Source of the DNA: Dehalococcoidales bacterium
GTDB taxonomy: Bacteria > Chloroflexota > Dehalococcoidia > Dehalococcoidales > JAFGLR01
DNA: 53,068 bases
Assembly (NCBI GenBank): GCA_016927955.1
Contig: JAFGLR010000025.1
Location: 1-53,068 of the forward strand
Direction of reading: 5' to 3'
Shown here in pieces: positions 14,071 through 40,957 of this stretch. The notes under the pieces were generated by a model. That model was not told the DNA's origin. It saw nothing but the letters and a program-made list of their open reading frames with translations, and ran no database searches. Every line of letters begins with the position of its first letter. The stretch's first letter is position 1. The position numbers were made by a program, and so were the translations under genes.

Positions 14071-14093
14071 CCGGAGATAGATAGAGACATTTA

Positions 14094-15584
14094 ATGAATA
14101 CGTTTACTTCGATACTCCCGTTAATTGCCGTACTGATTCCGGTACTGGCAGCGGTACTGATATTGATATTTTCACGCCGGCAAAATATCCGGGAATTCTG
14201 GACTATCGCAGCGTCAGTTGCGATGTTCGGGGTTATTTTCACGATGCTCCCGGACGTACTGGGTGGTAAATTTCCACATATCGACCTGTTAAATATTGCG
14301 CCCGGTATATCGCTTTCTTTTCACGTTGATACCGTCGGGTTAATCTTCGGCCTATCGGCATCATTACTCTGGATTATTACCTCCTTCTATTCTATCGGTT
14401 ATATGCGCAGCCTGGCGGAGCATAAACAGACCCGTTACTACACTATGTTCGCTCTCTGTCTGACTTCTACTATCGGCATTGCATTTTCCGCCAACCTGCT
14501 GACTTTTGTCCTGTTCTACGAAATTTTGACTATAGCTACTTATCCGCTGGTGATTCATAAAGAAACCCCGGCAGCGATGTCCGCCGGACGCAAATACCTG
14601 GCCTATCTGCTTACCGGAGGGCTTGCTTTAATTGCTGCCACAGCTTTAACTTATTACTACGCAGGTTCTTTGGATTTTACTGCCGGCGGGTTTTTAAGCA
14701 ATTTAACCGGTCAGCCCAATCTGATGCTTCTCTTTGTCCTATTTCTGGTCGGGTTCGGGATGAAGTCCGCCCTGATACCATTGCATAGCTGGCTGCCCAC
14801 CGCGATGATTGCCCCGACACCGGTGAGCGCTCTGCTCCATGCGGTAGCGGTGGTCAAAGCGGGCGTTTTCGGGGGCATCCGGGTAGTGGGCTTTATTTTC
14901 GGACCGGCTCTTTTCCATAATATCGGTGCGTGGCAGATTCTGGCGATAATGGCAGCCATCACTATAATTGTCTCTTCATTATTGGCTTTTTACCAGGATA
15001 ATTTAAAACGGCGGCTGGCTTACTCCACGGTGGGACACCTTTCGTACATTCTACTAGGCATATCTTTGTTATCGCCTATCTCCTGGACCGGCAGCCTTAT
15101 CCATCTGGTGAATCACGCAACATTGAAAATAACCCTGTTTTTCTGTGCCGGAGCGGTATATGCCAAAACGCACGTGGAGAATATCAGTGAATTAAACGGC
15201 ATCGGAAAACAGATGCCGATTACGATGGGAGCTTTTACACTGGCGGCGATAGGTCTGGTGGGCATTCCGCCTCTAAACGGATTTGTCAGCAAATGGTATC
15301 TCGGCGAGGGTGCTATAAATGCCGGACAGCCTGTTTATCTGGGAGTACTTTTACTCAGCGGCCTGCTTAACGCCGGTTACTTTTTCCCCGTTATCAGAAG
15401 GGCATTTTTCATGAGTTCGGAGAAAAGGACACGGTTTAGCGAAGCTTCTATGTTTATGGTCGTGCCTTTAGTAATTACGGCATTGCTATCCCTCTTCCTA
15501 GGGCTTTTGCCGGACGGCTTATTCCACTTCTTCCAACTTGCCGGTGATACGGTAGCCAGTGTTTTTAGCGGAGTAATAAGATGA
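14094..15584 (+). CDS. mrpD: Second antiporter-like subunit, MrpD / NuoM-N family
   Basis: 496 aa. KSALIPLHSWLPTAM, LAYSTVGHL and HATLK motifs. Confidence 0.85.
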   Translation: MNTFTSILPLIAVLIPVLAAVLILIFSRRQNIREFWTIAASVAMFGVIFTMLPDVLGGKFPHIDLLNIAPGISLSFHVDTVGLIFGLSASLLWIITSFYSIGYMRSLAEHKQTRYYTMFALCLTSTIGIAFSANLLTFVLFYEILTIATYPLVIHKETPAAMSAGRKYLAYLLTGGLALIAATALTYYYAGSLDFTAGGFLSNLTGQPNLMLLFVLFLVGFGMKSALIPLHSWLPTAMIAPTPVSALLHAVAVVKAGVFGGIRVVGFIFGPALFHNIGAWQILAIMAAITIIVSSLLAFYQDNLKRRLAYSTVGHLSYILLGISLLSPISWTGSLIHLVNHATLKITLFFCAGAVYAKTHVENISELNGIGKQMPITMGAFTLAAIGLVGIPPLNGFVSKWYLGEGAINAGQPVYLGVLLLSGLLNAGYFFPVIRRAFFMSSEKRTRFSEASMFMVVPLVITALLSLFLGLLPDGLFHFFQLAGDTVASVFSGVIR

Positions 15585-15814
15585 AAATATTCACCGGGAA
15601 GAAAGCCACCTGGATAATATTGGCGATACTGGCCGTTATCGCCGTAGTAATCGGTTTCATATTCCCCGCCGGGGAAGAAGAACACGGGTTTTCCTGGACT
15701 CATTTCAACGGGTTTTATGCTTTATTGGGATTCATCGGATGCGTAGTTATGGTCTTTTTCGCTAAATGGATTAGTCATTACTGGCTGGAGAGGAAGAACG
15801 ACTATTATGATTAG
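15581..15814 (+). CDS. Small 2-TM membrane protein embedded in the Mrp operon
   Basis: 77 aa with two hydrophobic helices. 4-nt and 8-nt overlaps with the flanking antiporter-like genes imply co-translation. Confidence 0.6.
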   Translation: MKIFTGKKATWIILAILAVIAVVIGFIFPAGEEEHGFSWTHFNGFYALLGFIGCVVMVFFAKWISHYWLERKNDYYD

Positions 15815-17561
15815 TATTCCTCCTGCAGCAATTTTATTTTTAGGGGCTATCCTGCTGCCGTTTTTACCCCGCCGTAGCCACGCGGCCGTATTCCTGCTTT
15901 TTCCTTTAACGGCTTTTTACTGGTTATTGCAGCTGCATCCCGGGGATACGCTGACCGTCGGATTTTTAAATTACACCCTCATACCTACCCGGGTTGATGA
16001 GCTGAGCCTGGTTTTCGGGTATGTTTTTGTGATTATCACCTTCCTGGGCGGTATTTTCGCCTATCACATCAAAAGTACCGGGGAAAGAATTGCTACGCTC
16101 TTATATGCCGGTGTTTCGCTGGGTGTCGTTTTTGCCGGCGACCTCATCACGCTGGTAGTATTCTGGGAGATTATGGCCGTAGCTTCGGTATACCTTATCT
16201 GGGCCAGAGGCACGGCTCTCTCCCGCGGTGCCGGGATGCGCTATCTGATGGTACATCTGTTTGGCGGCAGCATCCTGATAGCAGGTGTCCTGATACAGCT
16301 CAACCAGACCGGCTCGATTGCGTTTAATTATATGTACGCCGGTTTAGCCTCTTACCTGATTCTCTTCGCTTTTTGTCTCAATGCCGCGGTACCGCCGCTA
16401 CATGCCTGGCTTTCCGATGCTTATCCAGAAGGCACGGTTACCGGCAGTGTCTTCCTGAGTGCGTTCACCACTAAGACCGCGGTATATGTACTGGCGAGAG
16501 GGTTTGCCGGTTGGGAAATTCTTATCTGGGCAGGAGTGGCGATGGCGGTTTATGGCGTCGTCTATGCCGTGCTGCAAAATGATATCCGCCGCTTGCTGGC
16601 CTACCATATCATCAGCCAGGTGGGCTATATGGTTGCCGGGGTCGGCATAGGGACAATGGTGGCCGTAAACGGAGCCACAGCTCACGCTTTCACCCATATT
16701 CTATACAAAGCGTTGTTGTTTATGGGCGCCGGCACGGTTCTTTTTGCCACCGGACGAAGTAAGCTAAGCGAGTTAGGCGGCCTGGGCAAGGCGATGCCAT
16801 GGGTTTTCGTCCTGTATATTATCGCCGGTTTTTCCATTTCCGGAGTACCCCTGTTTAGCGGCTTCATCAGTAAGTCGATGATTATTTATGCGGCCGGTTT
16901 AAGCGGTCTGGGACTGGTAGTAATACTGTTAAATCTGGCTTCGGTAGGTACTTTCCTCAGTACCACTCTCAAGCTGCCTTATTTTACCTGGCTGGGAAAG
17001 TATAACGGCACGGGAGAACCTCCCCGCGTGACACAGAAAATCCCCCTAAATATGTACATCGGCATGGCTCTTACCGCCGTTTGTTGTATCGTACTAGGTG
17101 TTTGTCCTTCACTGCTATACAATATTCTGCCTTATCCGGTAGACTACCGGCCGTATAATTCCGCTCATATTATAGAGACTATCCAGATTCTGGTATTTAC
17201 CGGCATCGGGTTCTGGCTGCTTCTCAAGGTATTAAAGCCCAAAGATACAATGACGCTGGACATAGACTGGTTCTACCGCCGCCCGGCTAGACCGGTTTAC
17301 AACGTATTCGTAGTTTACTTTAACCGGTTTATGGGCTGGATAGAGACTCTCACCGGACGTCTGGTTTACGTGTTAATACGATTCGCATCGAATCCTATAA
17401 AATGGTTAACTAAAATCCAGGTGTCCGGAGCGAAAGGCACCGGCGGTGCAAAAGTCCCGGAGGATTACGACCCCGATTACCAGCGGCTGCCGGTACAGTT
17501 TATGTTACTTATCGTGGTAGCAATTTTCGTCGTGTTACTTGCATGGGGATTTCTGAAGTAA
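15807..17561 (+). CDS. Third antiporter-like subunit (MrpA-N / NuoL-like, 584 aa)
   Basis: 584 aa. FWEIMAV, PPLHAWLSDAYPEG, LAYHIISQVGYM and HAFTHILYKALLFMG motifs of the NuoL/M/N family. Confidence 0.85.
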   Translation: MISIPPAAILFLGAILLPFLPRRSHAAVFLLFPLTAFYWLLQLHPGDTLTVGFLNYTLIPTRVDELSLVFGYVFVIITFLGGIFAYHIKSTGERIATLLYAGVSLGVVFAGDLITLVVFWEIMAVASVYLIWARGTALSRGAGMRYLMVHLFGGSILIAGVLIQLNQTGSIAFNYMYAGLASYLILFAFCLNAAVPPLHAWLSDAYPEGTVTGSVFLSAFTTKTAVYVLARGFAGWEILIWAGVAMAVYGVVYAVLQNDIRRLLAYHIISQVGYMVAGVGIGTMVAVNGATAHAFTHILYKALLFMGAGTVLFATGRSKLSELGGLGKAMPWVFVLYIIAGFSISGVPLFSGFISKSMIIYAAGLSGLGLVVILLNLASVGTFLSTTLKLPYFTWLGKYNGTGEPPRVTQKIPLNMYIGMALTAVCCIVLGVCPSLLYNILPYPVDYRPYNSAHIIETIQILVFTGIGFWLLLKVLKPKDTMTLDIDWFYRRPARPVYNVFVVYFNRFMGWIETLTGRLVYVLIRFASNPIKWLTKIQVSGAKGTGGAKVPEDYDPDYQRLPVQFMLLIVVAIFVVLLAWGFLK

Positions 17562-17646: not shown

Positions 17647-18783
17647 CTAGGCCGTTATTAACCTGGCGATTTCCCTCCGGTGATAGGCCGGTTGGCCGAG
17701 ATAGTTGAACAGGGAACGCGATGCCCTGGTATGGAAACTTATAGCGTGTTCCTGGGAGTAGCTGATACCGCTGAAAACCCGGTGGGCCAGGGTAACCACT
17801 TCAAAATAGGCTTCACTGGCGACCGCTTTAGCCAGGTGAATGCTTTCCTCCGAGGGCTTACCGGTGTCCAGTTTCCAGAGGGCTTCGTATGTGGTTAAAC
17901 GGGCGGCATCGGCATAGTTGGCCATATCGATAATCCAGTCCTGAACCCGCTGGAAACGCCCGATGGCCTGCCCGAACTGCAACCTGGTGCGGCTGTACTC
18001 TATCGTCTGCTCGATTACGTTCTGGCTGGCCCCGACTTTATAGGCACAGAGCACCGGAATGGCTTTGGCGATACCGGTTTGCAAAGGCAGCCAGCCCTTG
18101 TTTTCTTCTCCTAGAATACCGGTTAACGGCACTTTTACCGCATCGAAGGTAACCTCAAATATCCGGCTAGAAAGAAATCCGGGGAGCTTGCGTATTGTAA
18201 CTCCATTGGCTTTGCTGTCCACCAGGACTAAAGAAATGCCCTCCGAACCCATGCCGGAACCGTTACGGGCGACGACGATAAAATGGGTTGCGGCAAGGGC
18301 ATCATAGGTGAAAAGCTTTACACCCTTGACAACCGCCTGATTACCGTCCTTCTTTATTGAAGTCCGGATAGAGGAAGGCTCCCAGCCGAATTCCGGTTCG
18401 GTCAGGGCGAGCGTTATTATCCTTTTGCCCTCAGTGAGTTCCGGTAAAATTTGTTTTTTCTGTTCTTCCGCAGCGGCTTCCATAATGATTAAAGCAGAGA
18501 GAATGCCGGAGGAAAAATAGGGCCCCGGCATCGGTCCGGTACCCAGGGCTTCAAACAGGGCGGCAGCACTGGTCAGCGAACCGCCCGTTCCGCCGTAAGC
18601 CTCCGGGATAACAATGCCCAGCCAGCCCATATCAACAGCCTTCTGCCATAGCTCCGGGGTATAGCCGGTATCAGATTCCTGTAAAGATTGAATCACCGGC
18701 TTCGGAGCGTCACGCTTCAGGAAGTCGATGGCGGCCTTCCGCAGCATTTCTTCGCTTTCGGTAAAACTTAAATCGAGTCTCAT
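17647..18783 (-). CDS. Acyl-CoA dehydrogenase family protein (378 aa)
   Basis: ACAD three-domain layout. Starts MRLDLSFTESEEMLRKAA and has GWLGIVIPEAYGG. The C-terminus reads LFNYLGQPAYHRREIAR where MCAD-type enzymes have YEGT. Confidence 0.85.
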   Translation of the reverse strand: MRLDLSFTESEEMLRKAAIDFLKRDAPKPVIQSLQESDTGYTPELWQKAVDMGWLGIVIPEAYGGTGGSLTSAAALFEALGTGPMPGPYFSSGILSALIIMEAAAEEQKKQILPELTEGKRIITLALTEPEFGWEPSSIRTSIKKDGNQAVVKGVKLFTYDALAATHFIVVARNGSGMGSEGISLVLVDSKANGVTIRKLPGFLSSRIFEVTFDAVKVPLTGILGEENKGWLPLQTGIAKAIPVLCAYKVGASQNVIEQTIEYSRTRLQFGQAIGRFQRVQDWIIDMANYADAARLTTYEALWKLDTGKPSEESIHLAKAVASEAYFEVVTLAHRVFSGISYSQEHAISFHTRASRSLFNYLGQPAYHRREIARLITA

Positions 18784-18826: not shown

Positions 18827-20062
18827 TTACCGGCCGATACCCAGTGCCCGGGCCATATTTATTTTCAGGGCTTCCGGAGTACCTCCGGAGGCAAAGCAGA
18901 CCCCGGCACGCTGGACGGACTCGAAAGTACCGTCATCCATCTGCCACTTGGTGTCGTCGGTCAGGGCATAAGGACCGAGAACTTCCAGCGAATCGCGGAT
19001 AAACCGCCCGCCGAAGTTCTTGGAGAACAAGGCCATCTGCGGGCCGGTATAAGGAGCTTCTATATGATTAAAGGACTGCCAGGAGTTCCTTATCGAGAAA
19101 AGCCTTTCAGTCTGGGCGTCAATATAAATATCTACAAGAGTATCGAGTAAAAGCGGATTGTCTTTTATCCGTTTGATAATGTTCGGGTTATTTTTCACCT
19201 GAGCAAAAAATTTCTCGGTAGTATAATTCCGGCCGATGACACCGACGAAGTTACCGCTATGCTCGACATCGAGAGCGGCAACAACTACCTTCCAACCGTC
19301 GTGGTCGCCTCCTATCAAACATTTCTCAGAAACTTTAACATCATCGAAGAAGACCGAGTGTTTGGTACCCTCGGAGTTGGCTACCGTAGGGCTGCAAGCT
19401 TCATAAAAAGTACCGGGCGGAAACAGGTCCAGCGGCTGAACTTCGATGCCCGGCAGATTAGCAGGCACGATAAAAGCCGCCAGGTTCTTATGGCGCGGTG
19501 CCTGAAGGTCGCTACGGGTTAACAGAAAGAACTGGTCCGGCTTGGAGGGAAACGCTCCGACAAATATTTTCTGACCGTTAATTATAAAATAGTCGTTTTC
19601 ATTCGGGGAACGGAGAGCGTTGGTCTGCTGGTTGGCCTCGTCAGTGCCGGCTTCCGGCTCGGTAAAAAGCTGCCAGGTCAGTACTTCACCCCGGAACATC
19701 GGGGGTAAAAACCGCTTTTTCTGTTCTTCAGTACCGGCCGCGAGAATAGCGGGGCCGGCCAGAACTCCGACGTCGTAAAGCGGCGGCAGTCCCAAACCTC
19801 TTTCGGCTAACTCCACACTCAATACGTAACACTGGTCGGCATTCAGCCCGCCGCCGCTGTATTCGGGAGGAGCCCCGGGGTACAGCCAGCCCTTTTGCCC
19901 CAGCTTATAGACAAAATCCCGCCTCATTTGCCACTGTTCCCGGCTCATTTTGGCCGGGTCCCTGATGGTTAATAAACCCTTTGGAACACTATTGTTAAGC
20001 CATTCTTTCACATCAACCGCAAATTTTTCCTGTTCGGGTGTATACCCCAATGAAAAATCCAT
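18827..20062 (-). CDS. Acyl-CoA dehydrogenase family protein (411 aa)
   Basis: ACAD-like (MDFSLGYTPEQEKFAVDVKEWL..., TEPEAGTD). I chose the ATG at 20062 because GGAGG lies 7 nt upstream. The track's extra 12 codons are unsupported. Confidence 0.85.
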   Translation of the reverse strand: MDFSLGYTPEQEKFAVDVKEWLNNSVPKGLLTIRDPAKMSREQWQMRRDFVYKLGQKGWLYPGAPPEYSGGGLNADQCYVLSVELAERGLGLPPLYDVGVLAGPAILAAGTEEQKKRFLPPMFRGEVLTWQLFTEPEAGTDEANQQTNALRSPNENDYFIINGQKIFVGAFPSKPDQFFLLTRSDLQAPRHKNLAAFIVPANLPGIEVQPLDLFPPGTFYEACSPTVANSEGTKHSVFFDDVKVSEKCLIGGDHDGWKVVVAALDVEHSGNFVGVIGRNYTTEKFFAQVKNNPNIIKRIKDNPLLLDTLVDIYIDAQTERLFSIRNSWQSFNHIEAPYTGPQMALFSKNFGGRFIRDSLEVLGPYALTDDTKWQMDDGTFESVQRAGVCFASGGTPEALKINMARALGIGR

Positions 20063-20348
20063 AATGTACCTCCTCTGATGTTGTACTCCTGCTGACAAGC
20101 CACTTTTAGGGGACTTTGTATATATAATACAATTTTAGGAATCAGGATTAAAATAACCGTACCGTATCAAACAATACGCCTATAAAAAAGAATCTTACAT
20201 TATTTTTGTTTCTGGAATCAACCAGCCTATCTGAAAGCCTGAACTTGCGGCTTGAATCACACGTGTATTAACTATGAAAATGTTATGCCCCGGCCGATAC
20301 ACAAAGTATATCGGTAAAAAGGTCAATGTACTGTATTAGCGTAAGTGT

Positions 20349-20866: not shown

Positions 20867-22180
20867 CTATAGCAAAGTCATTTTCTTGCAGTGTCGCATC
20901 AGGCGTTCGCGGAAAGCAGGGTGGGCAATGGCAATGAGGGCTAAAGCCCTTTCGCGAACACTCTTGCCTCGCAAGTTAGCTATACCATATTCGGTTACGA
21001 TATAGTGAACATCGTTCCGGGTTGTGGTTACCACCGCTCCTTTATCAAGATACGGCACAATCCGGGAATGGCTACCATCAGCCGCGGTGGATGCCGCTGC
21101 AATAATCGATTTACCGTTTTTCGAGCGGGAAGCCCCCCGGATAAAGTCTACCTGGCCGCCGACACCGGAATACTGCAAAGGCCCGATTGTTTCAGAGGTT
21201 ACCTGCCCTAGCAGGTCAATCTGCAAACAGGAATTAATAGAAACGACATTATCATTTTGCCCGATGATATAGGGGTCGTTAGTATAATCGATAGGATACA
21301 TTTCCACCGTGGGGTTATTATTCACGAAATCATACAATTTCCGGGAGCCCATCAGGAAAGAGGCGACTACTTTACCTTTGTTAATATTTTTCCGGCTGCC
21401 GTTAATCACCCCGCTGCGGATAAGGGGGATTACCCCGTCAGAGAACATTTCGGTATGAATACCCAAGTCCTTTTTATGTGTCAGAAATTGCAGGACGGAG
21501 TCCGGTATGTCGCCGATACCGAGCTGTAAACAGGCCCCATCCCCGATTAACTCGGCACAATAATTACCGAGTTTCCGGATACCGGAGGCAAACCCGGGAT
21601 TTTCCCGTTTTGTCGAACGATAAACAATGAGCGGTTCGTCATGTTCTACAATGTAATCGAGCTCCGAAACATGGATGAGAGCATTACCGCACGTCCGCGG
21701 CATATGCCGGTTAATTTGAGCGATAACTGTTTTAGCCGATTCCGCAACCGGTTTGGTGTAGTCTACCGATATACCGAAGCTACAGTAACCGTGTTCGTCC
21801 GGCGGGGACAGCTGGCATAACATGACATCGACCGGAATATCCTCCCGGTACAAACGTGGCAACTCCCGGAAGAAACAGGGGGTAAACCGGGCCTGGCCGC
21901 GGTTAACCACATCCCTGGTAGCAGACCCGATAAAGATAGCATTGTGGATAAAGTGCCCGGTACACTCGGCCAGGCAGTATTCACTCAAGCCCATCGGCAA
22001 CATATGAGTAACTTCCACATTTTCATACTCTGCCTTATGGGCGACCATTGTTTTTACGAGATGCTGCGGTTCGGCACAATTATGCCCCACCGCTACCCGG
22101 TTGCCAGACTTAATCGCTTGAACGGCAATGTCCGCCGTGGTCAGTTTACTCCGGTATTCGTCTTGCCAGTTCATCACCAC
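20867..22180 (-). CDS. Acetyl-CoA hydrolase/transferase family protein (4-hydroxybutyrate/butyryl-CoA:acetate CoA-transferase-like)
   Basis: 437 aa. The GIHTEMFSDGV block contains the catalytic Glu context of this CoA-transferase family. GGQVDF motif present. The start is GTG 22180 or, more likely, ATG 22174. Confidence 0.85.
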   Translation of the reverse strand: MVMNWQDEYRSKLTTADIAVQAIKSGNRVAVGHNCAEPQHLVKTMVAHKAEYENVEVTHMLPMGLSEYCLAECTGHFIHNAIFIGSATRDVVNRGQARFTPCFFRELPRLYREDIPVDVMLCQLSPPDEHGYCSFGISVDYTKPVAESAKTVIAQINRHMPRTCGNALIHVSELDYIVEHDEPLIVYRSTKRENPGFASGIRKLGNYCAELIGDGACLQLGIGDIPDSVLQFLTHKKDLGIHTEMFSDGVIPLIRSGVINGSRKNINKGKVVASFLMGSRKLYDFVNNNPTVEMYPIDYTNDPYIIGQNDNVVSINSCLQIDLLGQVTSETIGPLQYSGVGGQVDFIRGASRSKNGKSIIAAASTAADGSHSRIVPYLDKGAVVTTTRNDVHYIVTEYGIANLRGKSVRERALALIAIAHPAFRERLMRHCKKMTLL

Positions 22181-23772: not shown

Positions 23773-25536
23773 ATGGCATTTAATTTCCCACCGTTTTCGC
23801 TGATATTTTTATTCGGCTCGATATTGGCAATATTTATTGCCTGTATTGTTTGGATGAGGCGGCCGGCGCCCGGTGCCGTACCTCTGACCTTCTTCATGCT
23901 CTGTATTGCCTGGTGGCTATTTGCCAGGATTCTTGAAGCCGGAGCTATTGATTATTCTGTAAAAGTATTCTGGGGCAAAGCCGAGTTCTTCGGCATTGCG
24001 GGAATCGGTATCCTATGGGCTTTCTTCGCCCTGGATTATATCGGATCTACCTGGTGGCGCCGACCCCGTAATTACCTCTTGCTTGCTTTACTGCCTATTG
24101 CCGCTCTCGGCGTCATCTGGACAAATCAGTTTCACCATTCATTCTGGACTGATATATATCCTTCAGGTATACCCTCCATCCTTGTATGGGAACACGGCTG
24201 GTCATTCTGGCTCTTCTGGGGCTGCCAATATATCGCCCTTATTTACGGTATGCACCTGCTTTGGGAGTTTGTCTTCAGGAAACAGGGTATTTACCGGCGC
24301 CAGTTCATCTTACTATTAACCGGTACTATGCTCCCCCTCATCGGTAATATAATTTATGTATTTGGCTTAAGACCGGTTAAAGGACTGGACTTGACCCCTT
24401 TCGTTTTCGTTATTGCCGGAGGGTTCTATTCTCTCTCCTTACTCCGATTTCACTTTATGAACCCCGTGACCATTGCCCGCAACAAACTGGTGGAAAACCT
24501 GCCGGACGGTATACTAGTTCTTAATGCTCAAGGAATTGTAGCCGACATAAATGCAGCCGGTGAGCGCATTATCAACACCAGTCGAGAAGATACCATCGGC
24601 AAACCGGTCATACGGACCTGGTCGAAATGGCCTCCCACAATAATAAACACTACTCCTTTCGAAGCCAGAGCGGAAATTATTACGGAAAGTCCGCGGGGAA
24701 ACCGGTATTTTAATGTTAGCTCAACGACCTTGAGAAACAAGCAGAATAATATTATCGGTAAATTGATACTCCTGCGAGATATATCCGAGCGCCGGGAATC
24801 TCAGAAATTAATGGAGACCCTCTATGATAAAGAATACAAGCTACGTCATGAATTACAGCAGGAAATAGAAAAGCGGGATAAATATGTCAGGGCAATTGTT
24901 CACGAATTAAAAACACCATTAACGGCTATTCTCGCCTCCGGTGAAATATTAGAAGCTGAGATAAATAATACAACTCAATCCTCACTGGTCAGTAATATCA
25001 GAAAATCTTCGATTAATCTGGAAAACCGGATAAATGAACTTCTGGACTTGGCTCGCGGAGAAATCGGGACCCTGCATATCGAACCAAAACCTATCGACAT
25101 CACAGAATTGATACGGGAAGTCGAATCAGAAACAGCCCCATTAGCCCGCAGTAAAGCTCTGGGATTAGAAGTAGTGATTCCCGATAATTTACCTTTAGTG
25201 AACGGGGACAACCACAGGCTACGTTGGGTACTGTTAAACTTACTGAATAACGCTTTTCACTATACTACCGAAGGTAAAGTGATTATATGTGCCGAAAAAT
25301 ATGATGATTATTTTATACAGGTGAAAGTTGAAGATACCGGACAGGGAATCTGCGATGACATGATGCCGCATCTATTCGACCCCTACTGGCGAAACCGGGA
25401 AAAGGACAGGCTTAGCGGATTAGGCATTGGGCTAGCGTTAAGTAAGATGTTTATCGAACTGCATGAAGGTAAAATATGGGCGGAAAATAATCCGCAAAAA
25501 GGTGCCAGTCTAATTTTTACTTTGCCGTTAGCCTGA
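23773..25536 (+). CDS. Sensor histidine kinase: N-terminal multi-TM (7TM-type) sensor, PAS, HisKA, HATPase_c
   Basis: 587 aa with about 6 to 7 N-terminal TM helices. PAS-like LPDGILVLNAQGIVADIN. H-box VHELKTPLTAIL, N-box LLNLLNNAFHYT, G-boxes EDTGQGI and GLGIGLALS. No response regulator is adjacent. Confidence 0.9.
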   Translation: MAFNFPPFSLIFLFGSILAIFIACIVWMRRPAPGAVPLTFFMLCIAWWLFARILEAGAIDYSVKVFWGKAEFFGIAGIGILWAFFALDYIGSTWWRRPRNYLLLALLPIAALGVIWTNQFHHSFWTDIYPSGIPSILVWEHGWSFWLFWGCQYIALIYGMHLLWEFVFRKQGIYRRQFILLLTGTMLPLIGNIIYVFGLRPVKGLDLTPFVFVIAGGFYSLSLLRFHFMNPVTIARNKLVENLPDGILVLNAQGIVADINAAGERIINTSREDTIGKPVIRTWSKWPPTIINTTPFEARAEIITESPRGNRYFNVSSTTLRNKQNNIIGKLILLRDISERRESQKLMETLYDKEYKLRHELQQEIEKRDKYVRAIVHELKTPLTAILASGEILEAEINNTTQSSLVSNIRKSSINLENRINELLDLARGEIGTLHIEPKPIDITELIREVESETAPLARSKALGLEVVIPDNLPLVNGDNHRLRWVLLNLLNNAFHYTTEGKVIICAEKYDDYFIQVKVEDTGQGICDDMMPHLFDPYWRNREKDRLSGLGIGLALSKMFIELHEGKIWAENNPQKGASLIFTLPLA

Positions 25537-25822: not shown

Positions 25823-26896
25823 ATGGCAAATATACCTAATGAAATTCAAACATGGCAAATGACAACCCCAGGAACATTAACCAGAACCAGTATTCCGATG
25901 CCTGAAATTAAACCGGGAGAGGCATTGGTAGAAATCGCCGGCTGTGGTGTTTGCCACACCGACTTGGGCTACTTTTATGATGGAGTACCTACAGTTAATA
26001 AACCACCTCTCACTCTAGGCCACGAGATTAGCGGTACGGTAATCGCTGGAGATAGCAATTGGGTTGGTAAAGAAGTAATCGTACCGGCTGTAATGCCGTG
26101 TAATAATTGTCCCATCTGTGCCGCCGGTAGGGGTAACCGCTGCCTAGCACAAAAAATGCCGGGCAACAGCCTGGGAATCTATGGCGGTTTTTCCAGCCAT
26201 ATCGTCGTCCCATCCGCTGATTTATGCTGGGTAGAAGATAAAAAGGAATTCCCTCTGTCCCACCTGGCGGTTATCGCCGATGCCGTCACTTCGCCCTACC
26301 AGGGTGCGATTCGCGGCGAAGTCAAACCCGGTGACCTGACTATCGTTATCGGTGCTACCGGAGGCGTAGGTGTTTACGCCACTCAGATTATCCATGCCCT
26401 CGGGGCTAAAGAAGTCATCGCCATCGGCCGCAACCCCGCTAAACTAGAGAGGTCTTTACAATATGGCGCTACTAAAACAATTAGCTCTGCCGGAAAAGAT
26501 ATTAAAGCTATCCGCGATGAGTTCCGCGCTTACTGTAAAGAAAAAGGTCTACCCGCCAACTACGGCTGGAAAATTTTCGAGTGGACCGGTACCGGTGAAG
26601 GCCAGAGTATTGCTCTCGAGCTGCTCTCATTTATCGGCGTTTTAGTCATCGCCGGATACGGCATGCAGAAGAACGAATATATGATGTCACGTTTGATGGC
26701 ATTCGATGCCGATATCCGCGGCACCTGGGGATGCTTACCGAAATACTACGCCCCGGTATTGAAGATGGTTCTCGAAGGCCAAATCAAAATCGAACCGTTC
26801 CTCGAGACCAGACCGATGAGTACAATACAGAAGGCTTTCGAAGACGCCCATAAGGGCGGTATTGAGAAAAGGATTGTTCTCACTCCCGACTTCTAA
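25823..26896 (+). CDS. had: Zn-dependent alcohol dehydrogenase family, 6-hydroxycyclohex-1-ene-1-carbonyl-CoA dehydrogenase (Had/BamQ)-like
   Basis: 357 aa. GCGVCHTDLGYFYDGV and GHE motifs, structural-Zn cysteines CNNCPICAAGRGNRC, Rossmann IGATGGVG. The specific call rests on resemblance to Had as I recall it and on adjacency to the Oah-like gene. AAAGGAGG SD. Confidence 0.6.
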   Translation: MANIPNEIQTWQMTTPGTLTRTSIPMPEIKPGEALVEIAGCGVCHTDLGYFYDGVPTVNKPPLTLGHEISGTVIAGDSNWVGKEVIVPAVMPCNNCPICAAGRGNRCLAQKMPGNSLGIYGGFSSHIVVPSADLCWVEDKKEFPLSHLAVIADAVTSPYQGAIRGEVKPGDLTIVIGATGGVGVYATQIIHALGAKEVIAIGRNPAKLERSLQYGATKTISSAGKDIKAIRDEFRAYCKEKGLPANYGWKIFEWTGTGEGQSIALELLSFIGVLVIAGYGMQKNEYMMSRLMAFDADIRGTWGCLPKYYAPVLKMVLEGQIKIEPFLETRPMSTIQKAFEDAHKGGIEKRIVLTPDF

Positions 26897-26936
26897 TATT
26901 AATCATTAAAAATAAAAATAATCATTGGAGGTTATT

Positions 26937-28076
26937 ATGGCTTTAAATTGGATTCCACGGGAAGGTGGTGTAAAAGACCACAATATTTGGGGTATGGAAC
27001 ATTTCGGTACGACCCCCCCATGCACAATGTACGAAGAGAAACCCATCCTCGACCCGACCGGTAAACCGGTAGAAGGTCTATACAGCGCCTGGATTACCCT
27101 GAACAACCCTGCCCAGTACAATTCTTATACTACTGAGATGGTAAAGGGCGTTATCGCTGGTTTTCATCGCGCTCAGGAACAGCGTAATGTAGTTGCCGTT
27201 GTCTTCACCGGTGCCGGTAACAATGCCTTCTGCACCGGCGGTAATACCAAAGAGTACTCTGAATACTACTCTCAGAAACCGACTGAATATTCTCAGTACA
27301 TGACGCTTTTCAACGGCATGGTCGATGCAATCTTAATGTGCCAGAAACCGGTAATCCGCCGTATTAACGGTATGAGCGTTGCCGGCGGTCAGGAAATAGG
27401 CGGTGCCTGTGATATCGCAGTCGCTGCTGACACGGCTATCTTCGGCCAGGCCGGACCCCGCCACGGTTCCGCTCCTGTCGGTGGTTCCTCAGATTTCCTT
27501 CCCTGGGCGCTGACCATTGAAGATGCCATGTGGAACTGTGTCTCTTGCGAGATGTGGAGTGCCTACAAAATGGTCCGGAAGAATTACCTGAGCAAGGTTT
27601 TCCCGGTTTTAAAACAGGGTGATAAGTTCGTCAGAAATCCCTCAGTCATCACTGAAAAGTGGCTAGATAACGGTGAAATCGTTTACGGTGAGAGTGTTAC
27701 TGGTGAAGCCGCAAAAGCCGCCAGAGAAATTATGAAGGGCTGCACCTATGACTACTCCCTCGTCGATGCCGAAGTAAACAGAATCCTCTGGACTTTCACC
27801 AACCTGTTCCCGCACTGCTTGATGAAATCTATTGCCGGTGTTCGTCAGAAGAAAAAATACTTCTGGGACCTCAACAAGAACGACCATTTGTTCTGGCTGG
27901 GCGTCAATATGGACAGCGAGGCGTTCCTCGGCTTTACTGCCTTCAATACCAAGAAGATTACCGGTAAAGACACGATTGACTTTATCAAATATCGTGAGTT
28001 AATAGCCCAAGGCCATATGATTAATGACGAACTCTTCGAGGCCGTCTTAGGCAAACCTTTACCTCCGCAAAAATAA
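26937..28076 (+). CDS. oah: Crotonase-superfamily ring-opening hydrolase, 6-oxocyclohex-1-ene-1-carbonyl-CoA hydrolase (Oah/BamA)-like
   Basis: 379 aa, unusually long for a crotonase, as in BamA/Oah. The FTGAGNNAFCTGGN, VAGGQEIGGACDIAVAAD and GPRHGSAPVGGSSDFLPW blocks match my recollection of BamA. ATG at 26937 has TGGAGG 5 nt upstream; the track's TTG at 26925 is rejected. Confidence 0.65.
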   Translation: MALNWIPREGGVKDHNIWGMEHFGTTPPCTMYEEKPILDPTGKPVEGLYSAWITLNNPAQYNSYTTEMVKGVIAGFHRAQEQRNVVAVVFTGAGNNAFCTGGNTKEYSEYYSQKPTEYSQYMTLFNGMVDAILMCQKPVIRRINGMSVAGGQEIGGACDIAVAADTAIFGQAGPRHGSAPVGGSSDFLPWALTIEDAMWNCVSCEMWSAYKMVRKNYLSKVFPVLKQGDKFVRNPSVITEKWLDNGEIVYGESVTGEAAKAAREIMKGCTYDYSLVDAEVNRILWTFTNLFPHCLMKSIAGVRQKKKYFWDLNKNDHLFWLGVNMDSEAFLGFTAFNTKKITGKDTIDFIKYRELIAQGHMINDELFEAVLGKPLPPQK

Positions 28077-28098
28077 TCAATTTAATATGTAGTAACTT

Positions 28099-28132
28099 AG
28101 AGAAGCCCAAGTTAAATAACTTGGGCTTCTCT
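28099..28132 (+). terminator. Perfect 15-bp stem-loop between the oah-like and dch-like genes (no U-tract)
   Basis: AGAGAAGCCCAAGTT-AAAT-AACTTGGGCTTCTCT. Lies 22 nt after the oah stop and 100 nt before the dch start. Confidence 0.5.
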
Positions 28133-28232
28133 GTATAGGTTAGTGTTAATATTCTATCGCAAATAAGCTTGCATTTCGGGGTTGGATTTCGGTAAAATTC
28201 AGCCGAACCGTTTCAACTATATAGGAGGAAAT

Positions 28233-29003
28233 ATGGAATATAAGAATATTATTTTAGAGAAAAAAGATGGTATCACCAAACTAATCGTGAACCGTCCGCC
28301 TGTTAATGTCATAAATATGGAGACACTCCGGGAAATAAACAGTGCTATCGCCGACTTAACCAGTGACGAGGCTACTAAGGTCGTGATTATCCGCGGTAAC
28401 GGGGAAAAGGCTTTCTGTGCCGGCATCGAGGTAAAAGACCACCTGGGAGATATGCTGCCGCAAATGATGATGGAATTCGGCAAGCTATTTAAACTCCTCC
28501 GCGGTCTGGGCAAACCCAGCATTGCCTTGGTCAACGGCATTGCCCTGGGCGGCGGGTGTGAAATTATCGCCGGTTGTGATTTAGCTATTGCGGCGGAAGG
28601 TGTTAAAATGGGTCAGCCGGAAATTCAGTTGGGCGGTTTAGCCCCGGCGGCAGCCGCTTTATTCCCCCGCATTATGGGCCAAAAGAAAGCTTACGAGTTA
28701 ATTCTCATCGGCAACAGTATTACCGCAGAGCAAGCCGAGAAAATCGGGTTGGTTAATAAGGTAGTTCCTTTAGCTGAACTGGACAAAGCGGGCGAGGAAA
28801 TAGCCAAAACTTTCCTGAGCAAGAGTGCCCTCAGTGTGAAACTGGTACGCGAGGCTTTTTATGAGTGTGCTGGCAGTCCCGATCTTACCACTGCTCTGGA
28901 TAAAGCCACAGTAATGGGCATAGCCAACTGGTTAACGGAAGACGGACAGGAAGGCTTAAAATCCTACCTGGAGAAAAGACCGGCAGTCTGGAAGAATAAG
29001 TAA
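28233..29003 (+). CDS. dch: Enoyl-CoA hydratase/isomerase (crotonase), cyclohexa-1,5-diene-1-carbonyl-CoA hydratase (Dch/BamR)-like by context
   Basis: 256 aa from the ATG at 28233 (AGGAGG 4 nt upstream). FCAGIEV and ALGGGCEI oxyanion-hole motifs. The specific substrate is inferred only from the had/oah neighbours. Confidence 0.5.
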   Translation: MEYKNIILEKKDGITKLIVNRPPVNVINMETLREINSAIADLTSDEATKVVIIRGNGEKAFCAGIEVKDHLGDMLPQMMMEFGKLFKLLRGLGKPSIALVNGIALGGGCEIIAGCDLAIAAEGVKMGQPEIQLGGLAPAAAALFPRIMGQKKAYELILIGNSITAEQAEKIGLVNKVVPLAELDKAGEEIAKTFLSKSALSVKLVREAFYECAGSPDLTTALDKATVMGIANWLTEDGQEGLKSYLEKRPAVWKNK

Positions 29004-29024
29004 CGGCGTGGCTATTCCTGAAAC

Positions 29025-29300
29025 TCAAGTAATTTTTCTTAAATACCCGTAAACATGCTTCGAATACATTAGCATCATAAAGCAACCCTTTTTCACCGTA
29101 ATTCCCTCTAACGCTTTATCGATGCCTATAGCAGAATGGTAAGGCCGGTGTAGTTTTATTGCCTCAACTACATCGGCCGCCGCTGTTATTCTCGCTTACA
29201 TTAAGATGTCTTTATTCGATACCCCCCTGACGAATAACCGTAACCGAAAAAAATACTTTGCCGGCAAACGATAAATATTGTGAAATTATTCAATAATAAT
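29025..29300 (-). pseudogene. Degraded C-terminal relic of an HD-GYP/HD-domain phosphohydrolase gene
   Basis: The minus-strand translation gives ...FGYGYSSGG / (frame change in a G6 run, plus-strand C-run at 29222..29227) / SNKDILM*ARITAAADVVEAIKLHRPYHSAIGIDKALEGI...KGCF.... This resembles the HD-GYP C-terminus (DGSGYPxGLxGexIPLxARIxAVADxxDAxxxxRPYxxAxxxxxAxxxI), interrupted by a TAA. No intact ORF. Confidence 0.4.
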
Positions 29301-29538
29301 CAGTCTCTTTGTTCGAGGACCAATCCGGTTGCTTCGCTTATTTCATCATTCCGTAACCGTATCGCACACTCTCCATATTTACTAAGACGTACGGTATAAA
29401 GACTATCATTAAAGAAGGATTATCTAATACGGGTTATCATTAAATAAAAGGCGAATGAGACGGTAACACCTAACGAACTCATATTGTTGAAAAGTATAAG
29501 TTCAAATTGTAAAATTTAACCAACAGGTATTTTAACAA

Positions 29539-30549
29539 GTGATGAAACCAATTAATATCGTTATTACTCCACATCTGGATAAGGCATTATTAGAGCAAAT
29601 AAAGTTGGTTAGTCCGCGGTTAAAAGTAATAGACATATCCGGTCTGGCTCAACTTAAGATGATTGATCGATTTTTAACCGAACCCGATAATGTCAGAGCA
29701 AAAATTAATAAAATACTGGCAGATGCTGAAATTATATACGGTTACCGTCTGCCGGAACACCTTATCCGCCGGGCCCCGAAGCTAAAGTGGTATCAATCGA
29801 TGACCGCCGGCATTGATTGGTTTGTCGAAGATACCCTTTTAAACAGTAAAGTTATTATTACCACCGTCGGCGGTATTCATTCTACCGTCATCCCCGAATT
29901 CGTTATGGCACAGATGTTAATGCTGGCAAAACAGGCCCCCGAGCTTTTTGAGTTAAAACACGAAAAACAATGGTACCGTTTTATGCCGATAGTCCTGAAA
30001 GGTAAAACAATCGGTATACTGGGATTGGGTAAAATCGGCTGTGAAATTGCCCGCATGGCTAAAGCCTTCGGTATGAAAGTTATCGCCGTCCGCCGTTCGG
30101 CTAAAAAAGGTTCGCACTCGAAATATGCCAATCAGGTATTACCTCCTTCGAAAACGCACCGGTTGCTGGCAGAAAGCGATTTCGTTGTAGTTGCGTTACC
30201 ACTAACACGGGAAACCACCCGGATAATCGGCGAAAGAGAATTAAATGCGATGAAACCTTCGGCTTATATTATCAATATCGCCAGGGGGGCTATTATAGAC
30301 CAGCCTGCTCTGATACGAGCCCTGGAAGAACAGCGGATTGCCGGTGCCGCTCTGGATGTTTTTGACACCGAGCCGCTCCCTACGGATAACAAGCTTTGGG
30401 AAATGCCCAACGTAATTATTAGTCCCCATATTGCGGGAGCAATGCCGGATTACGAACAGCGTGCTACCGACGTTTTTTGCCAGAATCTGGCACGCTATAT
30501 CGATGGCAAACGCCTGATTAATGTCGTAAACAAAAAACGAGGTTATTAA
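29539..30549 (+). CDS. D-isomer-specific 2-hydroxyacid dehydrogenase family, NAD-binding
   Basis: 336 aa. GILGLGKIGCEIA Rossmann motif, NIARGAIID and SPHIAG catalytic motifs. Start is GTG 29539 or ATG 29542. Confidence 0.85.
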   Translation: MMKPINIVITPHLDKALLEQIKLVSPRLKVIDISGLAQLKMIDRFLTEPDNVRAKINKILADAEIIYGYRLPEHLIRRAPKLKWYQSMTAGIDWFVEDTLLNSKVIITTVGGIHSTVIPEFVMAQMLMLAKQAPELFELKHEKQWYRFMPIVLKGKTIGILGLGKIGCEIARMAKAFGMKVIAVRRSAKKGSHSKYANQVLPPSKTHRLLAESDFVVVALPLTRETTRIIGERELNAMKPSAYIINIARGAIIDQPALIRALEEQRIAGAALDVFDTEPLPTDNKLWEMPNVIISPHIAGAMPDYEQRATDVFCQNLARYIDGKRLINVVNKKRGY

Positions 30550-30573
30550 CCCAGCCTGAAATCAGGCTGGGTT
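30548..30573. terminator. Stem-loop between convergent genes (AACCCAGCCTGA..TCAGGCTGGGTT)
   Basis: Near-perfect palindrome overlapping the 30549 stop codon. No clear U-tract on either strand. Confidence 0.45.
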
Positions 30574-30598
30574 AATAAAACATACGGGACGCCTTTAT

Positions 30599-31861
30599 TT
30601 ACTTCTGTTCGAGAATTGTACAAATACCAAGACCGCCGCCACCACAAATAGTGAGTAAGCCGTATCTCACTCCTCTCCTAACCATCTCATGGATAAGAGT
30701 AACCAGCCTCATTACACCGGTAGCCCCAATCGGATGGCCAAGAGATATGCCCGAACCGTTTACGTTTACCTTATTTTCCATAACATCTGCACTCAACCCC
30801 ATTAACTTGGCGTCGGCAAGACATTGTACGGCAAAGGCTTCCTGGATTTCAATAAGGTCCATCTGGTCAATAGTAAGCCCGGCTTTTTTTAAAGCATTGT
30901 TTACGGCTATAGGAACCGCCGGGTAAGTTAAAGTGGGGTCAGCACCACCGATGCCAAAGGATTTAATATAGACCAGCGGTTTAACACCACGTTCTTCTGC
31001 CTTCTCCGGTGTCATCAAGACAACAGCTCCGGCTCCGTCGTTTTCGCTGGATGAGTTGCCCGCCGTACATACACCTCCCGGATAAACCGTTTTGAGTTTA
31101 GTCAGTAGCTCGATAGAAGTATCGCGGCGGGGTGTTTCATCTACGGCAAAAAGTACTTCTTTTCCCTTTTCCATAACGGGTATCGGAACGATTTCTTCCT
31201 TAAACTTTCCTGAGTCGATAGCAGCGATAGCTTTTTTATGAGAACCAACCGACCATTTATCAGCTTCTTCGCGGGTGATGTGTTCGTTCTTAGCCGCGGT
31301 TTCCGCCCAGGTCATCATCGAGTTAAGCTCGCCGAAGCGGTCGATAGGCTGGTGCATCGGGCGACCGCGCTGTATCCTGTCATAAAGCGGGATACCCCAG
31401 AGTGCCATACTGCCATGCTGTCGCGGGAAAAAGCCCCACTTCGGGTCGTTCTTACCGCCGACACCCCATTTCATATATTCACCGGGAATGTAAAACTCGC
31501 AGCGGCTCATGCTATCGGCACCGGCGGAAATGGTTGTATCCGCGTATTCCGCCTGGATTTCCATAGCAGCAGTCCATAAGGAGGCCACACCGCCGCAGCA
31601 ACGCCGGTCGACCGTAATACCGGGTACTTCGACCGGCCAGCCGGCTGTTAATAAGGCCAGACGGGCCAAATTGGGTGATTCGCCGCCTGCGTAAGCCTGG
31701 GAAAAAACGACATCATTCACTTCTTCAGGCTTCACTTTGGAATCGGCCACTGCCCTATTCAATACGGTCGCACCGAGTTTCTCGACGGGTGTATCGCGAA
31801 GGGTACCGCAATATGCCCCGATGGGCGTCCTAACCGCTGCTGTAATTACTACATCTTTCAT
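30599..31861 (-). CDS. Thiolase (acetyl-CoA C-acyl/acetyltransferase family)
   Basis: 420 aa. Active-site Cys region VDRRCCGGVAS. C-terminal GHPIGATG and CGGGGLG motifs. Confidence 0.9.
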   Translation of the reverse strand: MKDVVITAAVRTPIGAYCGTLRDTPVEKLGATVLNRAVADSKVKPEEVNDVVFSQAYAGGESPNLARLALLTAGWPVEVPGITVDRRCCGGVASLWTAAMEIQAEYADTTISAGADSMSRCEFYIPGEYMKWGVGGKNDPKWGFFPRQHGSMALWGIPLYDRIQRGRPMHQPIDRFGELNSMMTWAETAAKNEHITREEADKWSVGSHKKAIAAIDSGKFKEEIVPIPVMEKGKEVLFAVDETPRRDTSIELLTKLKTVYPGGVCTAGNSSSENDGAGAVVLMTPEKAEERGVKPLVYIKSFGIGGADPTLTYPAVPIAVNNALKKAGLTIDQMDLIEIQEAFAVQCLADAKLMGLSADVMENKVNVNGSGISLGHPIGATGVMRLVTLIHEMVRRGVRYGLLTICGGGGLGICTILEQK

Positions 31862-31913: not shown

Positions 31914-32657
31914 CTAGATATATTGACCGCCATCGACCCTGATAATATCGCCGGTGACATGGCGAGATTTCTCACTGCAGAGAAATGTAACGACATTAGA
32001 TACATCTTCCGGGCTGGCTAGTCTGCCGATCATTGTTTCATCGATAGCTTTCTGTAAAAACTCTTTCGGAATGTTCTTTGCCATATCCGTTTCCACCATA
32101 CCCGGGGCTACGGCATTAACATTGATATTAAATTTACCTAACTCCCTTGCCAGGGTCTTAGTGAAAGCGATAATACCACCTTTCGAAGCGGAGTAGTTAG
32201 ACTGTCCGAATTTGCCGCGCATACCGTTAATAGAAGTAATATTAACGATTTTACCGTAGTTCTTTTCTTTAAAATGGATGGCGGCGGCACGGTTATAATT
32301 AAAATAGCCCTTCAAGTTAATACTGATAACCTCATCCCACTGCTGCTCGGTCATTTTCCAAATGACACTGTCCCGGTTAACACCGGCATTACAGACGAGA
32401 ATATGCAGGTCGCCCCATTCGGCAACCACTTTTTTAATCATATTCTCGGCATCCTGGAAACTGGCGACATCGGCTTGCACCGCCAGTCCTTTGCGGCCGA
32501 CCGCCTCTATCTGCCGGACGATTTCTTTCGCTTCGGTATCATGTTTACGGTAGTTTATGGCAACATTGGCACCTTCTTTAGCCAGAGTAATGGCGATCGC
32601 TGCCCCGATACCCAAACTGGCACCAGTTACGATAGCGTTCTTTCCTTCGAGGTCCAT
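31914..32657 (-). CDS. Short-chain dehydrogenase/reductase (FabG-like 3-oxoacyl/3-hydroxyacyl reductase)
   Basis: TGASLGIGAAIA cofactor motif, NAG, and the YSASKGG catalytic tetrad. ATG at 32657 is preferred (GGAGGAAGGA directly upstream) over 32669. Confidence 0.9.
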   Translation of the reverse strand: MDLEGKNAIVTGASLGIGAAIAITLAKEGANVAINYRKHDTEAKEIVRQIEAVGRKGLAVQADVASFQDAENMIKKVVAEWGDLHILVCNAGVNRDSVIWKMTEQQWDEVISINLKGYFNYNRAAAIHFKEKNYGKIVNITSINGMRGKFGQSNYSASKGGIIAFTKTLARELGKFNINVNAVAPGMVETDMAKNIPKEFLQKAIDETMIGRLASPEDVSNVVTFLCSEKSRHVTGDIIRVDGGQYI

Positions 32658-32941
32658 TCCTTCCTCCATTTCTAATACTATGTTTATTATCTCAGCGTAT
32701 AATTTTATTTTTTAATAAAACCAAAAATCAAGTTATATATCGGAAAGAGAAACTGCTGTATCAGTTAAAATCGCAAATGGCTGTACCCGTTGATTAATAT
32801 AAGAAGCTTATCAATATCCTATCATTCCACGCTCTACCAGTCAATTTATTTTATTATTTTAGGTATAACGGCCAAAAAACCTATTTATAAATATTAACAT
32901 TTAAGGTAAAATAGTAAAAATAATAATTCGAGGAGAGAATA

Positions 32942-38872: not shown

Positions 38873-39859
38873 ATGGCTACAATAGGCATTCCGCGAGCTT
38901 TAGCTTATTATCAATACTACCCGATGTGGCGGACTTTCTTCGAAAAGCTCGGCTCAGAAGTCGTCACTTCGCCGCCGACCACACAGAAAATGCTGGCGGA
39001 CGGAGCAGGCAGAGTTGTCGCTGATACCTGCCTGCCGGCGAAAGTCTATCTGGGACACGTTATTTCACTGGCAGACAAATGCGATTACATGTTTATTCCC
39101 GTTATCCGCAGCGTGAAACGAAAAGCATATAATTGTGCCAAATTTCTCGGCCTGCCGGATATGACCCGGGCGGTCGTACCTGAATGTCCGCCGATTCTAG
39201 AAATCGATTTCGATGTCAATAAAGGTGCGAATACTATATACAAATTAATTTATGAGATAGCTAAGCCTTTCTCCAAAAATAAAAGCCATGTTAAGCAGGC
39301 TGCGATGAGTGCATGGGAAACTCATCTTCATTACCGCCAGCTAATGGTAAATGAGAAACTCACCCCTCCTCAGGCACTAGGTCTGCTGTACGAAAATGAA
39401 AGGCCCGATTTAACGGAGGATAACCGGGTAACTATCGGACTTATCGGACACCACTACCTGCTCTACGATGAACTGGTGAACCAACGGCTAATACCGCGCT
39501 TAAAAACCGCCGGGTGCCGTATTGTTACTCCGGAAATGGCCGATGCGGAAAAGCTCGAAGCGGCGACTCAACGACTCGCAAAACGGCCTTATTGGACATG
39601 GGAAGAAGAAGTCATCGGCGCGGGAGGCTATTACCTGGAAAATGAAAATGTAGATGGGATTATCGGGGTGGCCGCCTTCGGCTGCGGGCCTGACTCGTTA
39701 ATGATGGACTCAGTACACCGCGAGGCAACCAGGTTAAGAAACACTCCTTTTATGAATCTTACATTAGAAGAGCATACCGCCGAGGCAGGGATAATCACCC
39801 GGTTGGAGGCTTTCCTGGACATGATTTTCCGCAAACAGCGGAGGTTAACATGCGCGTAA
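38873..39859 (+). CDS. BCR/HAD-superfamily subunit, DUF2229 / acyl-CoA dehydratase activase-related type (subunit 1)
   Basis: 328 aa. N-terminus IGIPRALAYYQYYPMWRTFFEKLG, DTCLPAKV, AAFGCGPD. I recognise these from the C-terminal halves of the large CoA-substrate-specific enzyme activase proteins. 2-nt gap after the M20 gene. Confidence 0.7.
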   Translation: MATIGIPRALAYYQYYPMWRTFFEKLGSEVVTSPPTTQKMLADGAGRVVADTCLPAKVYLGHVISLADKCDYMFIPVIRSVKRKAYNCAKFLGLPDMTRAVVPECPPILEIDFDVNKGANTIYKLIYEIAKPFSKNKSHVKQAAMSAWETHLHYRQLMVNEKLTPPQALGLLYENERPDLTEDNRVTIGLIGHHYLLYDELVNQRLIPRLKTAGCRIVTPEMADAEKLEAATQRLAKRPYWTWEEEVIGAGGYYLENENVDGIIGVAAFGCGPDSLMMDSVHREATRLRNTPFMNLTLEEHTAEAGIITRLEAFLDMIFRKQRRLTCA

Positions 39860-40938: not shown

Positions 40939-40957
40939 TTTGAATTCAAGGGGAGCT

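Follow-up and report, generated by a model that had tools for sequence, protein, structure and literature searches.

The window considered here, the whole 53,068-nucleotide stretch analysed, is contig C34 of a Dehalococcoidales metagenome-assembled genome (MAG), a 2.29-Mb assembly in 177 contigs with 91.9% completeness and 6.3% contamination. It carries three successive open reading frames (ORFs) on the plus strand, at 25823-26896, 26937-28076 and 28233-29003, encoding a Zn-dependent alcohol dehydrogenase, a long crotonase of 379 amino acids and a standard crotonase of 256 amino acids. A preliminary description made from the sequence read these genes as had, oah and dch, and its coordinates, motifs and domains agree with those found here. 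The locus is very probably the ring-processing stage of a Thauera/Geobacter-type anaerobic benzoyl-CoA pathway, the genes of which are split over several contigs of the MAG. Family calls are based on NCBIfam equivalog models with their curated cut-offs and on domain models.

The first gene product (25823-26896, plus strand; 357 amino acids) combines ADH_N and ADH_zinc_N domains and matches the Had model TIGR03201 over its full length (profile positions 1-349 of 349) with 463.2 bits against a cut-off of 338.65; its motif GCGVCHTDLGYFYDGV begins at residue 40. The second (26937-28076, plus strand) is a match to the Oah/BamA model TIGR03200 that is likewise end to end (1-360 of 360; 518.5 bits, cut-off 464.45), and its motif GPRHGSAPVGGSSDFLPW begins at residue 173. 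By family the two genes are Had and Oah/BamA, with the corresponding catalytic activities predicted. The identities first proposed thus stand, and neither of the two outcomes that the preliminary description named as refuting them was observed. The long crotonase falls within the Oah equivalog family. The alcohol dehydrogenase is also tied to its neighbor by position: among 80 loci related to the oah locus, 50 have a Had homolog of at least 55% identity no more than 500 nt from oah, most often upstream on the same strand (34 loci), less often downstream (14) or divergent (2).

The genome contains a single oah, and the Oah model finds nothing above its cut-off in 14 control genomes. The closest relatives of the protein are found in Dehalococcoidales and Dehalococcoidia MAGs (75-94% identity); identity is 65-70% for homologs from Anaerolineae, Syntrophorhabdaceae, Calditrichota and KSB1 and from some archaea. 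Distribution within the order was followed in a panel of 40 relatives, whose co-occurrence counts are non-independent since the genomes are kin. Oah-type matches are patchy in this panel, occurring in five genomes that each represent a different genus. Had is above its cut-off in five of the 40, and Oah-like genes are present in all four relatives that have a complete Had.

The third gene (28233-29003, plus strand) is a standard crotonase whose assignment is less direct. The ORF and its crotonase family are as first described; the label dch is an interpretation. The product is the best match to TIGR03189, the model for the dienoyl-CoA hydratase Dch, in the entire genome, where five paralogs reach at most 85 bits, and it lies directly downstream of had-oah in the window and in five Dehalococcoidales loci. 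The strongest argument tying it to the pathway is its phylogenetic profile. Homologs scoring 252-496 bits (47-89% identity) occur in only four of the 40 relatives (G010, G012, G036 and G049), which are exactly those with a complete Had and an Oah-type gene; matches in the remaining genomes do not exceed 163 bits. Three of these four relatives carry the homolog on a contig other than that of had-oah, which makes the link to the pathway independent of adjacency.

A maximum-likelihood tree, in which the Dch anchors are sequences above the TIGR03189 cut-off and not biochemically characterized enzymes, resolves three groups. The first (support 100/98) is made up of generic crotonases and takes in the five paralogs of the genome. 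The second holds 33 crotonases linked to oah or had, among them the above-cut-off TIGR03189 sequences (92/88). Between them lies a clade of six oah-adjacent Dehalococcoidales crotonases that includes the protein from the window (100/100).

Several observations weigh against reading this protein as Dch. It fails the Dch model by a wide margin (120.7 bits, cut-off 292.5), its best NCBIfam match is short-chain enoyl-CoA hydratase (188 bits, itself below cut-off), and the best matches among proteins of known structure are generic hydratases. Its clade branches as a deep sister to the Dch-like group instead of nesting within it. The separation of the homolog from had-oah in three of four relatives, noted above as independent of adjacency, also counts here, as does the layout of the locus. 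The gap between had and oah is only 40 nt, with GGAGG preceding oah, and the third gene begins 156 nt past oah behind an AGGAGG of its own. Directly after the oah stop codon lies a hairpin with a perfect stem of about 16 bp (28098-28133, plus strand; -30.4 kcal/mol, z = -7.3 versus shuffled sequences). It was not called by a terminator scan because it lacks a T-run. The hairpin and the long gap mean that the third crotonase gene may be transcribed separately.

These are the features that would be expected if the gene encoded an ordinary short-chain enoyl-CoA hydratase, acting for example on crotonyl-CoA after glutaryl-CoA oxidation, with another protein serving as the dienoyl-CoA hydratase. 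That explanation is unlikely. The genome already has five generic paralogs, which sit in their own 100/98 clade and score no more than 85 bits with the Dch model, and strong homologs of the third gene are confined to relatives with had and oah, whereas generic crotonases of beta-oxidation are widespread. The protein is not filed here as a member of TIGR03189, being below the cut-off and outside the clade of true members, but its profile and position connect it with the pathway and it is probably a functional cyclohexa-1,5-diene-1-carbonyl-CoA hydratase.

The Dch cut-off is a narrow one, and the low score is shared by counterparts in other organisms. Ten oah-linked crotonases from other phyla all fall short of the TIGR03189 cut-off, and the seven outside Dehalococcoidales that list the model score 137-176 bits. 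Among 301 genomes sampled from the phylum that includes Syntrophorhabdaceae, only three pass (423-437 bits), five reach 229-246 bits and most fall at 130-197 bits. In the genomes checked the best Dch-model match is the crotonase beside oah or had-oah, and the 12 top-scoring crotonases examined all adjoin had or oah, apart from one on a short contig. Database names for relatives of the third crotonase differ: the KO-based names of JGI are often Dch and those of NCBI are generic. In most of the obligate anaerobes sampled, the had/oah-linked crotonase is thus overlooked at the TIGR03189 cut-off, and calls of "no Dch" in MAG surveys therefore need care.

The preliminary description had noted that neither a benzoate-CoA ligase nor a benzoyl-CoA reductase is visible in the window. 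Profile scans bear this out: C34 has no above-cut-off match to the AOR family (PF01314), to HGD-D/BcrBC (PF06050) or to benzoate-CoA ligase (TIGR02262), and the only match of any kind is a sub-threshold HGD-D hit of 22.4 bits at 39485-39826. This hit lies within a plus-strand module at 38873-41923, located between an M20 hydrolase and plsX and composed of two DUF2229 proteins and an activase of the TIGR00241 type (185 bits). The module had been put forward as a possible reductase for the cluster, and its BcrAD_BadFG-type ATPase and the faint HGD-D match are what would recommend it. As a benzoyl-CoA reductase for this pathway it is scarcely credible. The large subunits match no BcrB/C or BzdN/O model, the HGD-D score is 23.2 bits (cut-off 28.4), the ATPase is far below the cut-offs for BcrA (107 versus 578) and BzdQ (62 versus 380), the module is about 10 kb from had, and a bona fide BamB is encoded elsewhere in the genome. 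With no subunit model above cut-off it was rejected as a class I enzyme.

Other candidates in the genome were rejected as well. There are about 18 HGD-D-family ORFs, in some nine pairs, on C157, C59, C170, C70, C7, C136, C147 and C162, and all pairs tested as class I reductases are far below the respective cut-offs. The best of them is a four-gene BCR-like cluster at C157:28674-32977 (BzdN 186 versus 454, BzdQ 224 versus 380). Several pairs adjoin fused double family III CoA-transferases of 816 amino acids, an arrangement like that of 2-hydroxyacyl-CoA dehydratase systems. A second AOR gene, on C65, is a generic AOR and not BamB.

The reductase and the ligase are found on two other contigs, as the preliminary description had allowed in suggesting that the reductase is encoded elsewhere. 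A scan of the genome for bcr and bam reductases and for aromatic ligases finds the bamBCDE genes on C171, a gene for benzoate-CoA ligase on C6 and class I enzymes below cut-offs only. BamB (C171:3047-5038, minus strand) is an AOR-family protein of 663 amino acids that matches BamB of Geobacter metallireducens (PDB 4Z3W_A) with 951.8 bits over residues 1-652, the next AOR structure scoring 195 bits. The Cys that corresponds to position 322 of the 4Z3W chain, presumably the tungsten ligand, is conserved in it. The following gene matches BamC (4Z3W_E; 244.8 bits), and an HdrD-like bamD and an HdrA-like bamE come next. The ligase on C6 matches TIGR02262 with 625 bits against a cut-off of 375. In relatives, the "1 TAA" flags on BamB homologs represent natural stop codons near the C-terminus.

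The bamE gene (C171:1-1368, minus strand; locus L033) contains an in-frame TGA at TNDCSM-x-ILAPK. In the congener G010 the cluster runs in the order PaaX-like regulator, MoeA, MobB, radical SAM/SPASM protein, bamB, bamC, bamD, bamE and bamF (bamE and bamF at L158:10215-14174); its bamE encodes about 1030 amino acids and has the same TGA, and the MvhD-like bamF has a TGA at CHW-x-AYGAAD. The genome encodes tRNA-Sec (C23) as well as SelA and SelB (C83), and these codons are therefore readable as selenocysteine. BamE and BamF are probably selenoproteins, which ORF callers would split.

In both congeners the genes immediately upstream of bamB (L033:5183-9250 on C171; L158:2365-6384) encode the PaaX-like regulator, MoeA, MobB and radical SAM/SPASM proteins. 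The regulator scores 247 bits, below the cut-off of 264.55. This neighborhood suggests control in response to aryl-CoA, together with cofactor-maturation proteins that are dedicated to the tungsten enzyme.

Three points tell against a complete class II pathway in this organism. The end of C171 cuts bamE, no bamGHI genes are found beside bamF in the congener contig, and C34, C171 and C6 are contigs of a MAG in 177 pieces with 6.3% contamination, so that their membership in one genome is supported by co-occurrence and not by physical linkage. If C171 were a contaminant of the bin, the organism would have no dearomatizing reductase of its own and had-oah would act on scavenged alicyclic CoA esters; the contamination figure and the separation of bamB from had-oah are compatible with this. 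Co-occurrence argues against contamination. The congener has a BamB of 93% identity, and another four Dehalococcoidales genomes that share the had-oah-crotonase synteny have one of 62-67% identity, so that BamB is present in all five genomes with that synteny. In the panel of relatives, G010, G036 and G049 have both BamB and the ligase (76-87% identity) and all of them also have Had, Oah and the crotonase; the gene set thus co-travels in the order. Contamination is accordingly a very improbable explanation, and scavenging, which the preliminary description had offered as one option, becomes unnecessary with the reductase and the ligase located on C171 and C6. The occurrence of bamA without a reductase in the window is an assembly artifact of a fragmented MAG rather than unusual biology.

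In the proposed pathway benzoate would be activated by the benzoate-CoA ligase (C6), and the class II tungsten/selenocysteine reductase BamBCDE(F) (C171) would dearomatize benzoyl-CoA to the 1,5-dienoyl-CoA. Had (25823-26896) is predicted to carry out the oxidation that yields the 6-oxo compound, and Oah/BamA (26937-28076) would hydrate this compound and hydrolyze the ring to give 3-hydroxypimelyl-CoA. Beta-oxidation would follow, possibly by way of a nearby dehydrogenase and thiolase.

Class II reductases and the Dch, Had and Oah steps are reversible. The set might thus serve chiefly as a reductive or fermentative route, forming cyclohexanecarboxylate or benzoate as in Syntrophus, and the many acyl-CoA dehydratase-like pairs in the genome do suggest a fermentative lifestyle. 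Direction is not readable from sequence, but a dedicated benzoate-CoA ligase above its cut-off co-occurs with the pathway, and a mainly reductive role is decidedly improbable compared with benzoate oxidation.

A more speculative view, and an unlikely one, concerns the Dehalococcoidales crotonase clade. It could be non-orthologous to Dch and represent a ring hydratase recruited separately, alongside a class II reductase that consists of BamBCDEF without BamGHI. Such an enzyme might be a non-orthologous dienoyl-CoA hydratase or might act on a different, for example substituted, cyclic dienoyl- or enoyl-CoA. If true, the ring hydratases of anaerobic aromatic degradation would include a third sequence type, defined by this clade.

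The genes flanking the cluster include functions of beta-oxidation. Those listed in the preliminary description, namely two acyl-CoA dehydrogenases (ACADs), a CoA-transferase, a thiolase and a short-chain dehydrogenase/reductase (SDR), are all present, and all are on the minus strand. The FabG-like SDR (31914-32669, minus strand) is a candidate 3-hydroxypimelyl-CoA dehydrogenase. It is 57-66% identical to SDRs that flank oah in 18 loci of other phyla, among them KSB1, Calditrichota, Zixibacteria and Gemmatimonadota, but within its own order no SDR outside the congener exceeds 44% identity (39 genomes). This suggests a pathway-linked and possibly horizontally acquired enzyme. The adjacent thiolase (30599-31861, minus strand; TIGR01930, 359 bits versus a cut-off of 240.55) is a candidate 3-oxopimelyl-CoA thiolase. 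In other phyla a thiolase follows the oah-linked SDR, yet it is only 32-36% identical to that of the window. Because the profiles of the SDR and the thiolase among the 40 relatives do not track oah, it is cross-phylum synteny that connects the two with the pathway, and for the thiolase such a role is no more than hinted at. The interval between crotonase and thiolase is about 1.6 kb in the window (29004-30598) and about 5.4 kb in the congener (G010:C29:9095-14485), a difference that reflects an insertion or deletion within the genus.

The two ACADs (17647-18783 and 18827-20098, both minus strand) carry ACAD domains, and their best NCBIfam matches are far under the cut-offs. No protein reaches the cut-off of the model for non-decarboxylating glutaryl-CoA dehydrogenase (NF045552; best 280 versus 470 bits). 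The CoA-transferase (20867-22180, minus strand) belongs to the acetyl-CoA hydrolase/transferase family and scores 372 bits versus 674.8 for butyryl-CoA:acetate CoA-transferase. These three genes represent generic functions in beta-oxidation and CoA recycling with no demonstrated link to the pathway. A 7TM-PAS sensor histidine kinase (23773-25536, plus strand; HisKA_7TM, PAS, HisKA and HATPase_c domains) is encoded upstream of had and has a counterpart of 65% identity in the corresponding place of the congener locus L062, where the CoA-transferase is also found next to it (76% identity). The kinase is a possible regulator of the pathway genes. Further away, the plus strand at 12595-17561 encodes three successive membrane subunits of 491, 496 and 584 amino acids that resemble Mrp/NuoLMN-type antiporters, one of which scores above the cut-off as subunit D of a Na+/H+ antiporter (696 versus 564 bits).

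Compared with known systems, the pathway is an ordinary and apparently complete benzoyl-CoA route of obligate anaerobes, of a kind already known, that happens to be spread over the contigs of a MAG. The three-step chemistry from dienoyl-CoA to 3-hydroxypimelyl-CoA would be that of Thauera aromatica and of Azoarcus (bzdWXY), with the same Had and Oah families. Unlike these organisms the genome has no class I reductase at cut-off (the best BzdN-like protein scores 186 versus 454), and the order in the window is had-oah-crotonase where theirs is dch-had-oah. In G. metallireducens the reductase is BamBCDEFGHI, and BamR, BamQ and BamA correspond to Dch, Had and Oah. The resemblance to this system includes full-length matches to BamB and BamC (952 and 245 bits), Had and Oah at equivalog level, an HdrD-like BamD, and an HdrA-like BamE and, in the congener, an MvhD-like BamF with TGA codons where selenocysteine would be expected. 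It differs in that bamGHI do not follow bamF in the congener contig.

Loci with a Dch above the cut-off (423-437 bits) are of the had-dch type and have no oah within 1.5 kb, whereas in the window had and oah are adjacent and the crotonase is far below the model. A parallel in layout is provided by the sdr-had-oah-crotonase clusters of Syntrophorhabdaceae, which have the same had-oah-crotonase order and encode Oah and Had proteins 68-69% and 60-65% identical to those described here. The order occurs in related MAGs as well, and the gene order that the preliminary description had singled out is thus not distinctive. The Syntrophorhabdaceae crotonase likewise misses the Dch cut-off while being the best Dch-model match in its genome. 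Unlike that of the window, to which it is 37-41% identical, it falls inside the 92/88 clade with the true Dch members.

Related genes have been reported in Chloroflexi before. The marine single cells DscP3 and Dsc4 encode a benzoate-CoA ligase, the class I reductase bzdNOPQ and dch-had-oah (Sewell et al. 2017, PMC5736913). They were reported to provide the first example in the phylum of a complete pathway for anaerobic benzoate degradation; the absence of a class II enzyme was remarked upon and the energy cost of the class I enzymes was seen as a puzzle (PMC5736913). bamA and, in a few cases, bamB have been tabulated in Dehalococcoidia SZUA-161 MAGs (Zehnle et al. 2023, PMC10570749), and most Dehalococcoidia MAGs derived from sediment were found to carry bcr genes (Yu et al. 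2023, PMC10116835). The points of interest in the present case are modest, namely the class II reductase in Dehalococcoidales and the divergent Dch-like clade. Like DscP3 and Dsc4, the genome combines a benzoate-CoA ligase with ring-opening genes in a member of the Chloroflexi. Their reductase is of class I, whereas that found here is of the BamB type, which documents an apparently complete class II route, ATP-independent and based on tungsten and selenium, in a Dehalococcoidales lineage.

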